Shown one piece after another: positions 52,777 through 59,299 of a stretch of 64,000 nt of DNA. Under the pieces are notes generated by a model that was not told where the DNA came from, did not search any database, and was given only the letters and a program-made list of their open reading frames with translations. How positions within the stretch are numbered: position 1 is the stretch's first letter; every line of letters begins with the position of its first letter. The translations under genes were made by a program, and so were the position numbers. Source of the DNA: Candidatus Nomurabacteria bacterium (GTDB taxonomy: Bacteria > Patescibacteriota > Patescibacteriia > HK-STAS-PATE-3); NCBI GenBank assembly GCA_023898465.1, contig CP060223.1:352001-416000 (forward strand), read 5' to 3'.

Positions 52777-53169
52777 TTATGTCTTTTCAGCTGCTGGTTT
52801 GCGACCTGAACCCATCGTACGTCGGACGTTACCGCGAACTGTACGTGAATTTGTCTTGGTTCGTTGCCCGTGGACTGGTAAGCCCTTTGAGTGGCGGGAT
52901 CCACGATACGCGCCAATATCCTTTAAACGCTTAATATTTGCGCTAATTTCACGACGAAGTTCACCTTCGACGCGGAATTCTTTTTCAATAAATTCGCGGA
53001 GTGTATTTGTCTGCTGCTCATCAAGGGCTTGCGTGCGCAAATCATTGCTAATTTTAGCCATTTCAAGAATTTTTTTGGCACGAGTCCGACCAATACCGTA
53101 AATGTAGGTCAGAGCAATTTCAATGCGTTTGTTGTTTGGGAGTGTTACTCCAGCGATACGAACAGCCAT
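52777..53169 (-). CDS. rpsM: Ribosomal protein S13
   Basis: [31 protein letters not shown]…. Confidence 0.9.
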
Positions 53170-53171
53170 AA

Positions 53172-53285
53172 TTATCCTTGACGTTGCTTATGTCGTGGGT
53201 TTTCACATATCACGACAAGTCGCTTCTTTCTACGAATTAAGCGACATTTTAAACACATTTTTTTTACTGATGGACGTACTTTCAT
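53172..53285 (-). CDS. rpmJ: Ribosomal protein L36 (absent from the ORF track; found by hand translation)
   Basis: The minus strand translates to [37 protein letters not shown], 37 aa with a CxxC…C…H zinc ribbon. The start shares one nt with the infA stop (TAATG) and the gene ends 2 nt before rpsM. Confidence 0.85.
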
Positions 53286-53536
53286 TAGTGTCGATAGGTA
53301 ATGCGACCCTTGGTTAAATCGTATGGCGTCATTTCAAGTGTCACCGAATCGCCTGGTACAATACGAATTTTGAACATTCGCATACGGCCAGACAGGTGGG
53401 CAAGCACTTCTTTGCCGTTTTCGAGCTCCACCCGAAACATTGCGTTTGGAAGTTGCTCGGTTACGGTGCCGATCAGCTCAATAAAACCCTTTTTATTTTC
53501 GCTGACATTGAGTTGTTTCTTTGGGTCTTTCGCCAA
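53285..53536 (-). CDS. infA: Translation initiation factor IF-1
   Basis: S1-like OB fold …[31 protein letters not shown]…. Confidence 0.9.
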
Positions 53537-53647
53537 AATAGAAAGTTGAACTAGGCGTTGTTATTGTGCACGCCTAACCCTGGTAAAAGCATCAGATCTA
53601 TTTCCAGATACGTCAGGGTCAATCACAAAGTCGTGCACACTGGCGCA

Positions 53648-53676
53648 ACTATAACGGATGTGGCTTTTCTCGTCAA
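53648..53676 (-). promoter_or_regulatory. Sigma70-type promoter of the infA-…-rpsI ribosomal operon (TTGACG-17-TATAGT on the minus strand)
   Basis: Reverse complement of CGTCAA at 53671-76 and ACTATA at 53648-53, with a 17-nt spacer. The hexamers match those of the tRNA-Gln promoter. Lies about 110 nt upstream of infA. Confidence 0.5.
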
Positions 53677-54003
53677 GAGTAAGCATGTTTTCTTACATAT
53701 TGAATATATTTGGCTAATATTAGCAAAAAGACAAAGACTCCTGCCCGGAACTCGATTCGAGCGCATCAATGAGTTCTCGCCTGTATGCAATGTCCCAGAC
53801 TTGTGGAGTACAGCGCCTCTCAACTCTGAAACTGGAAAAATATGACTTGTCGCGAGCTTTTGATGACAGTCCGAGCAGGAGCCTTTGCCCAAGTGCAACA
53901 ATACAAGGCTCTGCTGATGCAGCTACCTTGTAAAAAACACTCCTTGTGACAACGTGTACTCCCCTGCTTCCTTAAGCTAAGTGTACGCCGCTATCTTGTC
54001 ATG

Positions 54004-54408
54004 TCAAGCATTTTCCCGAACTTCCAGTTCGTCAAAGCCGGTTTCTTCGCTAAATACACGCTGGTACTCCACATCCTCAAATATGCCAATAACAATTTCG
54101 GCGGTAAATTTTACCTTACAACCATCGCGCAAGTGTCCACCTATGACATTTCCTTCCTTGTCGGATATAGACACATGAATGTGACACCCCTTTGATGAGA
54201 TTGTTCCGGTGCCGGAAACAATTTCAAATGGACCATCCCATTCTTTCACTGCTTGGTTGTTTGCCTCGGATCCCGCCATACGCAGGACAGCATTTTCTAG
54301 ACCACCTACGATGGAGAGTAAAACACCAGCCGAAACATTTTGCGTCCGCGCTTCAATCTCTTCTTTAAGGAGTTGTCCTGGCCGTAAACGAAAAGTAAGT
54401 TGTTTCAT
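54004..54408 (-). CDS. PPC-domain (DUF296) putative DNA-binding protein
   Basis: About 134 aa. The fold pattern …VLLSIVGGLENAVLRMAG…GPFEIVSGTGTIS…HIHVSISD…G.V.GGHL… is typical of PPC/DUF296. The start overlaps the Nudix stop (ATGA). Confidence 0.5.
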   Translation of the reverse strand: MKQLTFRLRPGQLLKEEIEARTQNVSAGVLLSIVGGLENAVLRMAGSEANNQAVKEWDGPFEIVSGTGTISSKGCHIHVSISDKEGNVIGGHLRDGCKVKFTAEIVIGIFEDVEYQRVFSEETGFDELEVRENA

Positions 54409-54839
54409 AGTACTTGAATTAACTCTATCACACCGCTAAGTAGATTACTTTCGCCGAGAGCATCGTCTCTATTAAACCAGCGTACCTCCGCCACTTTTTT
54501 GTCTTTGGCCACTGGCGTGCCTGATTCGAGGCGGCATTCATACGGGATAAGAATTACTTGCCAATCCACACCCTCATTTGTTCGCCACATTTTGGTTTGA
54601 ACAAGCGGAAGTAAACGAGTAATGCTTACTTCACAATCAATTTCTTCCTTTATTTCGCGATGAAGTGCTTGTTCAACTGTTTCATTTACTTCAATCTTTC
54701 CACCAGGAAATTCCCACTTGGCATCAGCCTCTGGAATAAGCTTATCAATTCGGCGTTGTAATAAAAGTTCACCGTTTTCGTTTGTAATGAGTCCGACAAC
54801 GATGATAATTTGCTTAACGTTATTTACGCTTGCATTCAT
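54405..54839 (-). CDS. NUDIX hydrolase
   Basis: The Nudix box GGKIEVNETVEQALHREIKEEID matches GX5EX7REUXEEXGU. The start overlaps the NADAR stop (ATGA). Confidence 0.75.
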   Translation of the reverse strand: MNASVNNVKQIIIVVGLITNENGELLLQRRIDKLIPEADAKWEFPGGKIEVNETVEQALHREIKEEIDCEVSITRLLPLVQTKMWRTNEGVDWQVILIPYECRLESGTPVAKDKKVAEVRWFNRDDALGESNLLSGVIELIQVL

Positions 54840-55306
54840 GTTAGTTCATTACGGATTTCCATCCAGATTTTACCAATCATATTCAGGCCTGTTTTTTGAG
54901 GTCCGTTACCCCAAAAATCATCGACAGGAGAGTTCTCAATAATTTCTTTATCACCTGTTTTCTTAAGAACCTCCATTACATCAGGATTTTGATTTACCTT
55001 AGCGCAAAAAATTTCCTTCATAATGCGCACTTTTTCAGAATGCCACTCCTTGTATATTTTTTCTTTATGTTTTTGTGCAAGTCGGTGAGCCATTTCCGGA
55101 CTTCGTGAAGCAAGTATTTCTTGTTTGACTTCAGGGTAGTCGCGAAATTTTTGCCATTGATATGCGTGCTCAGCAGTAGGAAAGCTTTGTCCCCATATGT
55201 CAATTCTATGGGCTGAAAAAGAATCGAAAACATGAAAGGCTGGAGTAAAAAAATATATTTCATCCCCGCTTTCCATATTTAGATCTTTACTTGAGCTTGG
55301 ATACAT
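54836..55306 (-). CDS. NADAR (YbiA/DUF1768) family protein
   Basis: It aligns by eye with E. coli YbiA: FPTAEHAYQWQKF matches WPTSEHYFQAQKF, SRSPEMAHRLAQ matches VSSPMVAARMGR, and DDFWGNGPQKTGLNMIGKIWMEIR matches DAYWGDGGHGKGKNRLGYLLMELR. Confidence 0.8.
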   Translation of the reverse strand: MYPSSSKDLNMESGDEIYFFTPAFHVFDSFSAHRIDIWGQSFPTAEHAYQWQKFRDYPEVKQEILASRSPEMAHRLAQKHKEKIYKEWHSEKVRIMKEIFCAKVNQNPDVMEVLKKTGDKEIIENSPVDDFWGNGPQKTGLNMIGKIWMEIRNELT

Positions 55307-55367
55307 ATACTAGAATACTATTTTATAAAACCGAACAGCTGAACTTTATTTCTAGTAGAGTTTGTAT

Positions 55368-58061
55368 TTATGCCCCGTGACACTTTTTATACTTTTTGCC
55401 TGAACCGCAAGGACAAAGGTCGTTACGACCCACTTTTGGTAAGGCGTTTGTGGTTTCTTGCGCGCTTGGTGCTTTTGCAGCCGGAGTATTTGGGTCTGAT
55501 GGTGAAAAAGCCGACTTAGCATCTTGTTGCACCTTAGCCGGCGCGGTCATAGTAAGTACTCGTCGCTGCATTGGAGTTGCTTGCGCAATATTCTGCGTCT
55601 GAGACATGCGGAAGAGGGTGAAAACTATGGAATTGTTTACTGAGTCAATGAGTTGCGTAAACATGCCATACGCCTCTTTTTTGTATTCCACTAGAGGATC
55701 GCGCTGTCCATAGCCACGCAAGCCAATTCCTTGGCGCAATCGGGTCATGTTGTCGAGGTGCTCAATCCAAAGCGTATCAATAGAGCGTAAAGCTACTCCT
55801 CGCTCTACTTGGCGCATCCTCTCAACGCTAATATGTTCCTCAATGCGGGCGTACTCTGTTTGCGCTAAATCAACTAAGTAGTGAATGATAGCTTGTCGCG
55901 CCGCTGCATCCGCAGCAGTATCCCCTGCTTGGGCACGTAATTCATCAAGCTTAATTCTTTTTTCAATGGCAATTGGAAACATGGAATCCACAATTTCGTA
56001 TATTTCTTCAATATCCCAGGCGTGCTCATCCTCAGAAGCGGTGTGAAAAGAAACTGCTTTAGTAATCTCTTCCTCAATCGATTTCAGTACGATTTCGCGT
56101 AATTTTTCCGGCTCAGCTGACAGGTATTCGTTTCGCTTGCGATAAATGACTTCGCGATGTTTATTCATCACGTCATCGTATTCAACTAAATGCTTACGAA
56201 TATCAAAATTATGACCTTCAACTTTTTTCTGCGCTTGCTCGATTGATCTGGAGATAAGCTTATTTTCGATTGGCATATCCTCAGGCAAGCCAAGACGTTC
56301 CATAATACTCTTCATGCGATCAGAGCCGAAGATGCGCATGAGATCATCATCCATGCAGACAAAAAATTGTGTCGAACCTGGATCGCCCTGACGCCCGGCT
56401 CGCCCGCGGAGCTGATTGTCAATCCGACGTGATTCGTGTCGCTCAGTGCCGATAACGTGCAGACCGCCAACTGAACGTACAAATTCAGCTTCCTGCTCTT
56501 GATAAGGCGCTCCACCGAGGATAATGTCGACGCCGCGACCTGCCATGTTTGTTGCAACGGTGACCGCACCTTTGCGGCCGGCTTGTGCTAAAATCGCCGC
56601 TTCTTTTTCGTGGTTTTTTGCGTTCAATACCTCGTGCGGAATCCCTTCGCGCTTGAGTAATTCACCTAAAATTTCATTCTTTTCAATCGATATAGTGCCG
56701 AGCAACACTGGTTGTCCCAGCTCATGACGGCGCTTTACTTCTCGCACGACGGAAAGAAACTTCCCTTTTTCGTTTTTATAAATACTGTCAGGCAGGTCAA
56801 CGCGGGCTAAGGGTTTATTTGTTGGAATAGTTACAACCTCGAGCTCGTATATTTTTGAAAACTCTTCCGCTTCAGTCATTGCTGTGCCAGTCATACCGCT
56901 TAACTTATCGTAAAGTCGGAAGAGGTTTTGGAAAGAAATGGTAGCGAGGGTTTCGCTTTCCTTCTTAATCTCCACTCGTTCTTTTGCTTCAATGGCCTGA
57001 TGCAAGCCCTCAGAATAACGGCGGCCAAACATTAAACGACCAGTAAATTCATCGACAATAACCACCTCACCATCTTTTACCACGTAATCTTTATCTCGTT
57101 GGAATAATGCGTGCGCTTTTAGAGCTTGTTCAACTCGATGAACTGTCTCAATTCCACCCGCCTCATACATATTTTCAATATGCAAAGCTTGTTCAATTTT
57201 AGCGATTCCTCCCTCGGTTAAGGTGGCGCTACGCATTTTCTCATCAACGTTATAGTCAGCTCCTTCGCTTAGGCGTTGGACTAAGTCAGCATAACGATAA
57301 TTTTCTTCACCAGAATCTTCAGCAGGGGCGGAAATGATAAGCGGAGTGCGAGCTTCGTCAATTAAGATGGAATCAACTTCGTCGACAATGGCGTAATGTA
57401 ATGCCCGCTGTACTTTCAACGAGGCATCCGGCACCATATTATCGCGCAGATAATCAAAGCCAAATTCATTATTAGTTCCATAAGTGATATCAGCTGCGTA
57501 CGCGTCTTTACGCTGAACTGGTCGCAAATTATTCCATTGCGGATCATCTGATTGAAACTCAGGGTCGTAAAGAAACGCAGCCTCGTGCTGAATAGAGGCC
57601 ACGCTGAGGCCTAGGGCGTGGTAAACCGGGCCCATCCACTGTGCATCACGTTTGGCGAGGTAGTCATTTACCGTAACCACATGTACGCCTTTACCGCTGA
57701 GAGCATTTAATGTTACCGGTAAAGTGGCAACTAGGGTTTTTCCTTCACCAGTTTTCATTTCAGCAATCATGCCCTTATGAAGGACCATGCCACCAATTAA
57801 CTGCACATCAAAATGGCGCATGCCAAGTTTTCGCTTGGCCGTTTCTCTGACTATCGCAAAAACCTCAACCAAAAACTTTTCCGCAGTAGGTGTTTCCTGC
57901 TCTCGGAGCTCGGATTGAATTTCTTGCACGCGCTGCAAAATAGCGGCATCGTCCATGCCTTGTATCTTCGCCTCTAGCGCCGAAATCTCGTCAACTGTCT
58001 TCTGCAGTGACTTCACGGTGCGGGCGTTTGCATCTCCAAACAATTTCGTCAAAACCGACAT
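55368..58061 (-). CDS. secA: Preprotein translocase ATPase SecA
   Basis: 897 aa with DEAD-like motor motifs, the preprotein-binding and HSD/HWD domains, and the C-terminal zinc-finger [14 protein letters not shown]. Confidence 0.95.
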
Positions 58062-58116: not shown

Positions 58117-58401
58117 TTAATGGCGCTTTCTCAATTGAGTTTCAAGCATATCTTGGACAATATCAATTGCCGCGTAGAAGTCCTCATGCTCAGTCTCTGC
58201 GTAGATATCTGGTCCAGAAACCTGCATTTGGGCTTTTACGGTGCAAATTTTGCCGTGACGATGATGAAAATTACGCTCGAAAGTAAGAGAAAGCTGCGTA
58301 ATATCCTTCGCATACTTTTCTAAACGCTGCATCTTATCTTCCGCATATTCACGCAGCGCGTCAGTTGTGTCGATATTTTGTCCGTGGATGATTATATTCA
58401 T
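58117..58401 (-). CDS. hpf: Ribosome hibernation-promoting factor (short HPF/RaiA)
   Basis: The start is reset to MNIIIHGQNIDTT…, 1 nt after the murB stop. Has the S30AE beta-alpha-beta-beta-beta-alpha pattern. Confidence 0.75.
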   Translation of the reverse strand: MNIIIHGQNIDTTDALREYAEDKMQRLEKYAKDITQLSLTFERNFHHRHGKICTVKAQMQVSGPDIYAETEHEDFYAAIDIVQDMLETQLRKRH

Positions 58402-58402
58402 A

Positions 58403-59299
58403 CTAGAATCCAATATACCGTATTTCCTCACGGAGTTGAACCCCATAAGAATCACGGATTTGCTGTTTAATGTAGCTAATGAGCATAACTATATGTTCGG
58501 CTTTTGCTTCTCCGGTGTTCACAATGAAATTTGCATGCTGGGTAGACACTTGAGCGCCTCCGATTTCCTTACCTTTTAGTCCGGCTTGATCAATGAGTCG
58601 ACCAGCTGACTGGCCAGGAGGATTGGTGAAAATACAGCCAGCCGAAGCGTTTTTTAGTGGTTGCACTTCCTTTTTTCGAAGCAAGTTTTCGTTTATTCGA
58701 CTGCGGATTGCCACCGGATCGTCACTTTGCAATGGAAACCAAGCTCGTAAAACCACACCGCCCTGTTGTTTAAATACGCTTGTACGGTAGGCAAAGGCGC
58801 ATTCTTCCGGGGTAAAAAGCTTTACCGTACCACCTGTATCAAGTCCCTCAACCTTACTACTCTTATTTCCCAGTCCATATTCCGAATTTCCGGCATTGCC
58901 AAATATCCCACCACCCACAGTACCCGGTATGCCGGCTAGGAATTCCATACCACTTAAGCCATGCTGCGCTGCGCTGTTCATAAGTAAACTGAGTGGAACG
59001 TCAGCCTCTGCTTCTAAAACACTATCCTCAAGTAAAGTAATTTGCTTTCCACCTGATCGAATAACCACCCCATCAAAACCCTGATCAGAAATAAGCACAT
59101 TTGCCCCAGAGCCTAGGACAATAAAAGGAAGTGCTAATTCCTGAACTGCACGTAATAAGGAAAGAAACTCTTGCGCGGTCTGTGGGTGATAAAACAACTT
59201 TGCGGGACCACCTACTTTAAAATACGTGTAGGGTGCTAATATCTCGTTCTCTTTCCCGTTTGGGAAGCGGCGTAATAGCTCTTGTAGCTTATCTTGCAT
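58403..59299 (-). CDS. murB: UDP-N-acetylenolpyruvoylglucosamine reductase
   Basis: FAD-binding N-domain (…YTYFKVGGPAKLF…GSGANVL…) with the MurB C-domain. Confidence 0.85.
   Translation of the reverse strand: MQDKLQELLRRFPNGKENEILAPYTYFKVGGPAKLFYHPQTAQEFLSLLRAVQELALPFIVLGSGANVLISDQGFDGVVIRSGGKQITLLEDSVLEAEADVPLSLLMNSAAQHGLSGMEFLAGIPGTVGGGIFGNAGNSEYGLGNKSSKVEGLDTGGTVKLFTPEECAFAYRTSVFKQQGGVVLRAWFPLQSDDPVAIRSRINENLLRKKEVQPLKNASAGCIFTNPPGQSAGRLIDQAGLKGKEIGGAQVSTQHANFIVNTGEAKAEHIVMLISYIKQQIRDSYGVQLREEIRYIGF

Follow-up and report, generated by a model that had tools for sequence, protein, structure and literature searches.

Introduction

Escherichia coli YbiA (COG3236, TIGR02464, PDB 2b3w), encoded in the LexA-controlled dinG-ybiB operon, is the best solved relative of the first of three small tandem genes in a Candidatus Nomurabacteria genome (GenBank assembly GCA_023898465.1), which encode a NADAR protein, a Nudix hydrolase and a PPC/DUF296 protein. 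They lie within a 64,000-nucleotide stretch (contig CP060223.1, positions 352,001 to 416,000), hereafter the window. YbiA substrates are N-ribosyl 5′-phosphates, according to work cited in PMC11543638. NADAR hydrolases with conserved catalytic residues also serve as antitoxins in the DarT1-NADAR and YarT-YbiA pairs, and guanosine-ADP-ribose was hydrolysed in vitro by all NADAR subtypes tested, including K-12 YbiA and the myxobacterial YbiA antitoxin (PMC11125620, PMC11543638). In DNA viruses NADAR and Nudix occur together more than expected, and phage NAD/ADP-ribose networks combine them with Macro and SLOG domains (Iyer et al. 2022, PMC9503650). Stand-alone prokaryotic PPC/DUF296 proteins (VCA0587, PDB 2p6y; 2hx0; PH0802, PDB 2dt4) are structures without known function, and alpha-acetolactate decarboxylase is a more distant relation of theirs.

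The Nomurabacteria locus shares features with each of these systems. Its NADAR has the bare YbiA fold without extension, the catalytic Glu, Asp and Trp and the last-strand Glu, but it lies at the tail of secA, its clade has an N-terminal motif of its own and its host group is without riboflavin synthesis (PMC4508563). It is YbiA-type like the partner of YarT; unlike the antitoxins of the toxin-antitoxin pairs, it has no adjacent ADP-ribosyltransferase (ART) toxin, is not of the BC4488 type and resides in a housekeeping operon. NADAR and Nudix are found together here as in the phage networks, but the trio belongs to a cellular housekeeping operon and is without Macro, SLOG or ART domains. The Nudix protein, a single domain of about 140 aa, is most similar to the MutT/NudG (d)NTP pyrophosphohydrolases (PDB 5x1x, 1mut, 2rrk), with which it shares the Nudix box and a NUDIX_4 signal. 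The PPC protein differs from the described stand-alone members in that its clade, within the candidate phyla radiation (CPR, or Patescibacteria), is unusually conserved and syntenic with secA.

A sequence-only reading of the window had proposed that the trio forms a module for ADP-ribose processing or for repair of, and immunity based on, DNA ADP-ribosylation. The present analysis points elsewhere. All three genes belong to known families and have GenBank annotations, the arrangement is lineage-specific, and it is no new system. We favour, with moderate confidence, a reading in which the trio is the tail of a secA-led unit, hpf-secA-NADAR-Nudix-PPC, situated in a CPR island of mostly independent hydrolases for nucleotide or metabolite housecleaning or salvage.

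Organization of the locus

The trio consists of three consecutive open reading frames (ORFs) on the minus strand, at 55306-54836, 54839-54405 and 54408-54004, all annotated in the GenBank record of the 1,082,586-bp Candidatus Nomurabacteria contig:

54836..55306, minus strand: YbiA-family NADAR gene, 156 aa (USN53916.1; PF08719, TIGR02464, PDB 2b3w)
54836..54839, minus strand: ATGA, stop of NADAR and start of Nudix, seen in the sequence itself
54405..54839, minus strand: MutT/NudG-like Nudix hydrolase gene, 144 aa (USN53915.1; PF00293 and NUDIX_4)
54405..54408, minus strand: ATGA, stop of Nudix and start of PPC, seen in the sequence itself
54004..54408, minus strand: PPC/DUF296 protein gene, 134 aa (USN53914.1, GenBank name 'DNA-binding protein')

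Both junctions are ATGA stop/start overlaps (...acATGAatg at 54839-54836 and ...ctATGAaac at 54408-54405), exactly where the sequence-only reading had placed them, and hidden Markov model (HMM) searches bore out its NADAR, Nudix and PPC assignments, all three products scoring above their Pfam thresholds. The local order is murB-hpf-secA-NADAR-Nudix-PPC-infA-rpsM-rpsK-rpsD-rpoA, all in one direction. The tight coupling had been taken to imply stoichiometric co-expression. The overlaps are real, but tight packing is the norm in the window, where 39 of the 56 pairs of neighbouring ORFs on the same strand overlap or are separated by at most 20 nt; the 4-nt overlaps are therefore no special signal and do not point to a three-protein machine.

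The trio sits inside an array of co-directional minus-strand genes of about 41 kb (22982-63920) with very short or negative spacers, which comprises mur/fts-type genes, hpf, secA, infA, ribosomal proteins, rpoA and glycosyltransferases. Within it, infA lacks the secY-adk-map genes that usually stand before it.

The NADAR product in GenBank (USN53916.1, 146 aa) begins at Met11 of the ORF given above. The ten codons further 5′ (55277-55306) encode MYPSSSKDLN, and since the N-terminal motif MYPxSSxxLNKET is kept in at least 25 homologues, the longer 156-aa form is favoured and the annotated start is probably too short.

Conservation of the gene set

Conservation was surveyed with PPC as the anchor in 54 loci from species-representative genomes, and with NADAR as the anchor in 80 metagenome loci and ten context look-ups of the closest homologues (~90 loci; surveyed loci are numbered with L). 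Each scan covered at most 80 loci, selected via conserved peptide patterns, with crude gene calls by longest ORF. Many metagenome contigs were too short to show secA, and divergent Nudix genes may have escaped the HMM for this family, which was derived from MutT.

The complete three-gene set was found only in contigs of the same species (L001, L141 and L142). No NADAR gene lay within 6 kb of PPC in any of the 54 PPC loci, and no PPC gene lay near NADAR in the ~90 NADAR loci. NADAR-Nudix-PPC is not conserved as a unit in the surveyed loci: the genes lie apart in relatives, an outcome that the sequence-only reading had named as weakening its module proposal, and PPC and NADAR came together in 0 of ~145 loci.

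Nudix was the commonest neighbour family of both anchors, modestly so. Nudix genes filled 8 of 62 slots adjacent to PPC in CPR loci against 18 of 342 among other nearby genes (odds ratio 2.7, p 0.043), and 7 of 126 slots adjacent to NADAR against 7 of 369 others (odds ratio 3.0, p 0.055), a loose association of NADAR and Nudix at the level of families. The neighbouring Nudix genes were 19-25% identical to the window Nudix in L226 and L227, and elsewhere at most 47% identical over the box region. Orthology of the Nudix partners next to NADAR or PPC with the window Nudix was rejected at these identities (19-47%).

The interval downstream of secA

What recurred was the position of the genes behind secA. 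Two upstream neighbours are needed to describe it:

55368..58061, minus strand: secA, the conserved upstream anchor, 897-aa ORF
58117..58455, minus strand: hpf, ribosome hibernation factor, upstream of secA (TIGR00741, 77.9 bits, cutoff 40.9, with the alignment beginning at residue 19)

A SecA gene was found upstream of PPC, on the same strand and within ~4 kb, in 23 of 37 CPR PPC loci, and secA abutted PPC directly in seven (L009, L016, L019, L021, L027, L040 and L143), in one of which, L143, the order is hpf-secA-PPC with a 1-nt overlap. Elsewhere the genes between secA and PPC encoded HAD phosphatases (5-6 cases), Nudix hydrolases (5) and glyoxalases (2), and further families in this interval were ASCH/DUF3850, Ham1/ITPase, HIT, low-molecular-weight phosphatase, GNAT and DUF1653. 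The hpf-secA order itself recurred in nine loci (L009, L015, L016, L023, L040, L042, L143, L226 and L231).

NADAR behaved similarly. Among its closest homologues it lay downstream of secA in 7 of the 11 lineages with long contigs, namely the window and the six listed here, with Nudix, MazG-like, His_Phos_1, dCMP deaminase, ASCH and DUF1653 genes as its neighbours (percentages are NADAR identity to the window protein; x is an unnamed gene):

L002, 63%: murB-secA-...-Nudix-DUF1653-dCMP deaminase-NADAR-...-Nudix
L226, 59%: secA-His_Phos_1-NADAR-x-Nudix-secDF
L227, 58%: secA-x-NADAR-Nudix-MazG-like-hydrolase-Nudix
L230, 55%: secA-Nudix-NADAR-MazG-like-Nudix
L231, 53%: hpf-secA-x-NADAR-ASCH-...-secDF
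L071, 53%: murB-secA-NADAR-YhhQ

Across 31 secA-containing loci, which had been chosen for PPC or NADAR and not for Nudix, Nudix genes numbered 18 among the 184 genes within 4 kb downstream of secA and 6 among the 160 other genes of those loci (odds ratio 2.8, p 0.034). Because PPC, NADAR and other small hydrolases recur behind secA in varying sets, the window trio is probably one lineage-specific permutation of a variable secA-downstream island of CPR bacteria, and it is the only permutation seen with both NADAR and PPC.

In four loci (L020:4174-8820, L022:5467-10408, L007 and L024), five or six different Nudix genes stand in tandem around PPC behind secA. Several records with a CPR-type PPC and secA (L008, L013, L019, L022 and others) are titled 'Nanoarchaeota archaeon', 'uncultured Gammaproteobacteria bacterium' or 'Candidatus Saccharibacteria', and the NADAR homologue P0006 is labelled Ignavibacterium; these labels are probably taxonomic mislabels or bin contamination. 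The true start of the window hpf is probably an internal Met near 58401.

The NADAR protein

The first ORF matched PF08719 with an E-value of 2.4e-30 (106.4 bits, cutoff 35.1) and scored above the curated threshold of TIGR02464, the model for riboflavin intermediates N-glycosidases of YbiA type (107.9 bits, cutoff 73.7). Its alignment to E. coli YbiA extended over 138 residues at 31% identity (E 4e-20), as good as the sequence-only reading had judged it, whereas the DNA-guanine-ADP-ribose hydrolase NADAR 8bau was matched at E 2e-4. Residues E46, H47, D129 and W132 align with E48, H49, D130 and W133 of YbiA, of which E48, D130 and W133 are catalytic; the loss of catalytic residues that would have spoken against a NADAR function has thus not occurred. 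E124 is the last-strand Glu, rather than Asp or His, that marks the YbiA family against the DarT-linked BC4488 family. The criteria for the catalytic residues and the last-strand Glu were taken from PMC11125620. E46, H47, E124, D129, W132 and G133 were invariant across 29 homologues, and profile scores and residues agree in placing the protein in the YbiA family of the NADAR superfamily.

The name of the TIGR02464 model would make this protein a canonical YbiA damage-control N-glycosidase acting on reactive early riboflavin intermediates, with the other two genes as bystanders. The model score and YbiA as the best solved relative are in line with that role, but every Parcubacterial genome examined by Nelson and Stegen was without riboflavin synthesis and the ribK/ribF genes (PMC4508563), and no rib gene was among the top neighbour families of the ~90 NADAR loci. 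A riboflavin-intermediate substrate is disfavoured for the window NADAR because Parcubacteria are without that pathway, and we regard the riboflavin role as highly improbable. More generally, a YbiA-type NADAR that passes the riboflavin model in bacteria reported to be without riboflavin synthesis argues that the curated name is probably wrong for the CPR YbiA-type clade.

The closest homologue was 63% identical in cellular CPR genomes, and relatives in viral contigs (IMG/VR) were at most 44% identical; a viral origin of the gene was rejected on this comparison. A look-up of the exact protein returned only a 575-bp contig, too short for gene context.

Two other NADAR arrangements were seen. 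In L071:5001-6210, a CPR contig, murB-secA-NADAR is followed 4 nt later by a gene for the queuosine-precursor transporter YhhQ (TIGR00697, 130 bits), a single instance that raises the idea, by analogy, of some CPR NADARs acting in 7-deazaguanine or queuosine salvage. In three soil metagenome loci (L127:2095-2835, L131:5437-6144 and L134:1135-1842), NADAR is followed, with overlap, by a gene for a protein of 235-246 aa with an N-terminal ArsR-like winged helix and a C-terminal Nudix domain, the reverse of the order in NrtR. Judged by its domains, this fusion may be a regulator that senses ADP-ribose or nucleotides.

The Nudix hydrolase

The second ORF matched PF00293 at E 4.2e-21 (75.8 bits, cutoff 21.1), with a secondary NUDIX_4 signal. 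Its Nudix box, residues 47-69 (GKIEVNETVEQALHREIKEEIDC), fits GX5EX7REUXEEXGU except that the last Gly is replaced by Asp68 (G68D). Box and profile together place the protein in the Nudix superfamily, and the box, described previously as canonical, is intact apart from that one position.

The best NCBIfam and PDB matches were MutT- or NudG-type (d)NTP pyrophosphohydrolases, all of them below the equivalog cutoffs: TIGR00586, the MutT 8-oxo-dGTP diphosphatase, gave 63.7 bits (cutoff 97.9) and NudG NF007834 gave 45.7 bits (cutoff 156). The nearest non-self homologue was 46% identical, the highest value among 5.8 billion proteins, which marks a divergent sequence. The protein had been suggested to hydrolyse free ADP-ribose, an activity to which the profiles do not point, NudE, the measure used for ADP-ribose pyrophosphatases, scoring 18.5 bits against a cutoff of 169. 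ADP-ribose pyrophosphatases are reportedly marked by a Pro some 15-16 residues after the Nudix box; residues 84-85 of the window protein are Met-Trp, and the nearest Pro is P78. From its sequence, then, the protein resembles the MutT/NudG type and not the ADP-ribose pyrophosphatases, and it is best treated as a candidate rather than a proven member of the former.

Evidence for and against an ADP-ribose module

In the module proposed from the sequence alone, NADAR would free ADP-ribose from guanine in DNA or RNA or from a soluble derivative, Nudix would degrade it and PPC would bind nucleic acid, in repair of or immunity against an ART encoded in trans or by a foreign element. The conserved NADAR catalytic residues, the viral co-occurrence of NADAR with Nudix and the rank of Nudix as the commonest NADAR neighbour all accord with such a module. 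So does a match of the window Nudix to the PADLOC candidate PDC-S07 (E 2.3e-24), but PDC-S07 is unvalidated and may be a generic small Nudix; NADAR gave a weak PADLOC match.

The context is of another kind. The trio is flanked by secA and infA, in core housekeeping surroundings and not in a defence island, and NADAR, with secA and Nudix as its neighbours, has no ART toxin gene beside it, as toxin-antitoxin pairs do. The earlier observation that the window holds no ART agrees with the PADLOC scan, in which neither the trio nor 53 further proteins of the window matched a DarT or ART model; among the top 25 families in 110 NADAR neighbours there was likewise no ART family. A defence-island reading was rejected on these results. 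The proteins themselves also speak against the module: the NADAR is YbiA-type rather than of the DarT-linked BC4488 type, with its weak match to 8bau, and lies far below the cutoff of the anti-phage family NF053876 (DS32_2; 89.2 bits against 240), the Nudix is like MutT and not like NudF or NudE, and PPC accompanied NADAR in no other surveyed locus and had no relatives among viral contigs. No MutT-like Nudix gene occurred within ~4 kb of NADAR in 59 viral NADAR loci.

The in vitro removal of ADP-ribose from guanine by every NADAR tested lends the module some plausibility, but with the genes unlinked elsewhere, the Nudix MutT-like and no ART adjacent we consider it unlikely. An orphan module of this kind, repairing ADP-ribosylated DNA in a CPR bacterium, would have been a notable find, but the evidence speaks against the trio being one.

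Two PADLOC matches arose from different proteins among the 53 window ORFs outside 50.9-58.5 kb, mad3 (E 2.6e-29) and mad8 (E 2.3e-12), along with weak matches of ATPase type to LmuB, AriA and NsnB. All of these may reflect generic methyltransferase or ATPase similarity.

The PPC/DUF296 protein

The third ORF matched PF03479 at E 5.9e-28 (98 bits, cutoff 25) and has the PPC beta-sandwich fold, which confirms its earlier assignment to the PPC/DUF296 family. Homologues 65-77% identical to it were found across Moranbacteria, Wildermuthbacteria, Uhrbacteria, Sungbacteria and other CPR groups, and in 21 of 22 loci carrying both genes PPC was more similar to the window protein than SecA was, in a comparison biased by the retrieval of these loci via PPC motifs. 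Invariant residues were H76-x-H78...H92, E62, E104, R7 and R43, together with a GTGT loop. The fold is acetolactate-decarboxylase-like, that is, enzyme-like, although the sequence profile does not reach the acetolactate decarboxylase family. In acetolactate decarboxylase, zinc is held by an H-x-H...H triad, to which the PPC histidines can be equated only provisionally.

The GenBank name presents PPC as a DNA-binding protein, and the sequence-only reading had likewise taken it for a putative nucleic-acid binder; as such it would regulate its own operon or the infA/ribosomal-protein cluster downstream, and its gene does lie directly upstream of a 467-nt gap that bears promoter-like sites. The label, however, derives from plant AHL proteins, in which DNA is bound by an AT-hook and the PPC domain serves for trimerisation and protein contacts (PMC4209074), and the literature searched gave no experimental support for nucleic-acid binding by the PPC domain. 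The window protein is without a helix-turn-helix or AT-hook, its fold is enzyme-like, and its position relative to infA is not conserved, PPC following secA instead. A role as DNA-binding regulator is accordingly very unlikely. A search of the literature for the function of any prokaryotic PPC/DUF296 protein gave only plant AHL or irrelevant papers.

The closest clade outside the CPR was found in metagenome-assembled genomes (MAGs) of Clostridia, at 44-50% identity (L044, L048-L053, L055 and L057-L059). Most of these loci have the overlapping order pyrF-PPC-aldose-1-epimerase-like protein, L049 and L058 having another upstream gene, and in about ten PPC directly follows a true pyrF (TIGR02127, 273 bits). 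By analogy, this order is a hint that the protein may be tied to the metabolism of nucleotides or sugar phosphates. In L042:6001-6545 and L046:364-956 the PPC tblastn match fell into two segments ~100-200 nt apart, suggesting that the gene in these MAGs is frameshifted, interrupted by an insertion or misassembled.

Base composition and flanking regions

With a GC content of 0.374 (z -2.5), NADAR was the lowest of the 62 window genes; Nudix was intermediate (0.411, z -1.3) and PPC typical (0.452, z +0.1). Because GC is graded in this way, NADAR, possibly together with Nudix, was probably inserted later into an ancestral secA-PPC junction. A search for flanking repeats or mobile-element scars around the putative NADAR-Nudix insertion gave only chance-level matches of 14-17 nt.

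Two non-coding intervals bound the trio:

55307..55367, minus strand: secA-NADAR spacer, 61 nt, with no promoter-like or terminator-like match in a consensus scan
53537..54003, minus strand: PPC-infA non-coding gap, 467 nt, which bounds the unit on its downstream side and contains promoter-like sites but no family-matching ORF

A consensus scan of 53100-55700 on the minus strand found no promoter- or terminator-like site from the secA stop to the end of PPC. Sigma-70-like promoter matches lay at 54007-53980 (TTGACA-16-TACACT) and 53676-53648, and a simple scan found no terminator after PPC. This pattern would be compatible with a trio read through from secA and an infA/ribosomal-protein cluster that starts afresh. 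Folded as RNA, the PPC-infA gap had a minimum free energy of -151 kcal/mol (z -4.36), which none of 100 shuffled sequences equalled, and an Rfam scan of 50-59 kb at E-values up to 1 gave no match. By its predicted fold, the gap may serve the infA/ribosomal-protein operon as a structured leader, or it may encode a non-coding RNA outside the catalogued families.

Discussion

The gene calls, family memberships, conserved residues, synteny statistics and composition anomaly described above are observations, to which the favoured reading adds substrates, co-transcription with secA and a housecleaning role, all three of them inferred. In that reading three independent small enzymes would ride on a constitutive hpf-secA transcript. 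The Nudix hydrolase, by its likeness to MutT and NudG, would convert non-canonical (d)NTPs to (d)NMP and pyrophosphate, and NADAR, as a YbiA-type ribosyl N-glycosidase, would cleave an aberrant N-ribosyl-5′-phosphate compound or an ADP-ribosyl-type adduct and would not act on riboflavin intermediates. PPC would be the conserved resident of the locus, probably a trimer of acetolactate-decarboxylase-like fold whose conserved H-x-H...H/Glu/Arg pocket probably binds metal. The overlaps would give co-expression through genome compaction and hitch-hiking at the operon tail, rather than a stoichiometric three-protein machine.

Several points weigh against this reading. Overlapping adjacency of NADAR and Nudix recurs in L227, L102, L113, L127, L131 and L134, and some functional link between the two may exist. 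The best SecA identity among the sampled relatives was 64%, so that none stands at genus level and a narrow clade might still share the trio. With p-values of 0.03-0.055 the enrichments are modest, their loci are phylogenetically non-independent, and the surveys behind them carry the scope given above (at most 80 loci per scan, crude longest-ORF calls, selection by peptide patterns). Co-transcription with secA is argued from a simple scan that turned up no consensus signals, and the housecleaning theme is read from the names of families.

The three proteins might alternatively act in series. Nudix would hydrolyse damaged or surplus NTPs to nucleoside monophosphates (NMPs), NADAR would split the N-glycosidic bond to give ribose-5-phosphate and a base, PPC would carry out a further metal-dependent step, and the product would feed the non-oxidative pentose-phosphate pathway. 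This scheme would be attractive in an organism that cannot make nucleotides de novo: Parcubacteria are without such synthesis and keep the non-oxidative pentose-phosphate branch (PMC4508563). Overlapping gene order would suit a pathway, and the N-ribosyl 5′-phosphate substrates of YbiA, the Clostridia loci in which PPC follows pyrF, and the PPC fold with its invariant His, Glu and Arg are all congenial to it. An obligate pathway is argued against because the three genes are not co-inherited, and the partner Nudix genes are non-orthologous. In addition, we know of no activity of YbiA on ordinary NMPs. Serial salvage thus has a small share of the probability, and the tail of a secA-led unit with mostly independent enzymes remains our preferred interpretation.

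PPC/DUF296 proteins have had solved structures since 2006 and have no known function, yet in most of the surveyed CPR loci PPC is more conserved than SecA; being highly conserved and syntenic with secA, it is a good target for functional work. At the speculative end, the CPR PPC could be, instead of a DNA binder, a metal-dependent enzyme with an acetolactate-decarboxylase-like H-x-H...H site and a nucleotide-derived or damaged metabolite as its substrate, forming the core of the secA-tail island, with NADAR, Nudix and PPC working in series in this genome to recycle aberrant nucleotides to ribose-5-phosphate, in an organism unable to make nucleotides or flavins. We give this proposal a low probability. 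If it were true, Patescibacteria would have a 'secA-tail' housecleaning island not described before, with PPC as its conserved core. In Patescibacteria the interval behind secA appears to be a place where small nucleotide-sanitation enzymes dock repeatedly, and such a site fits organisms that live wholly on salvaged nucleotides.

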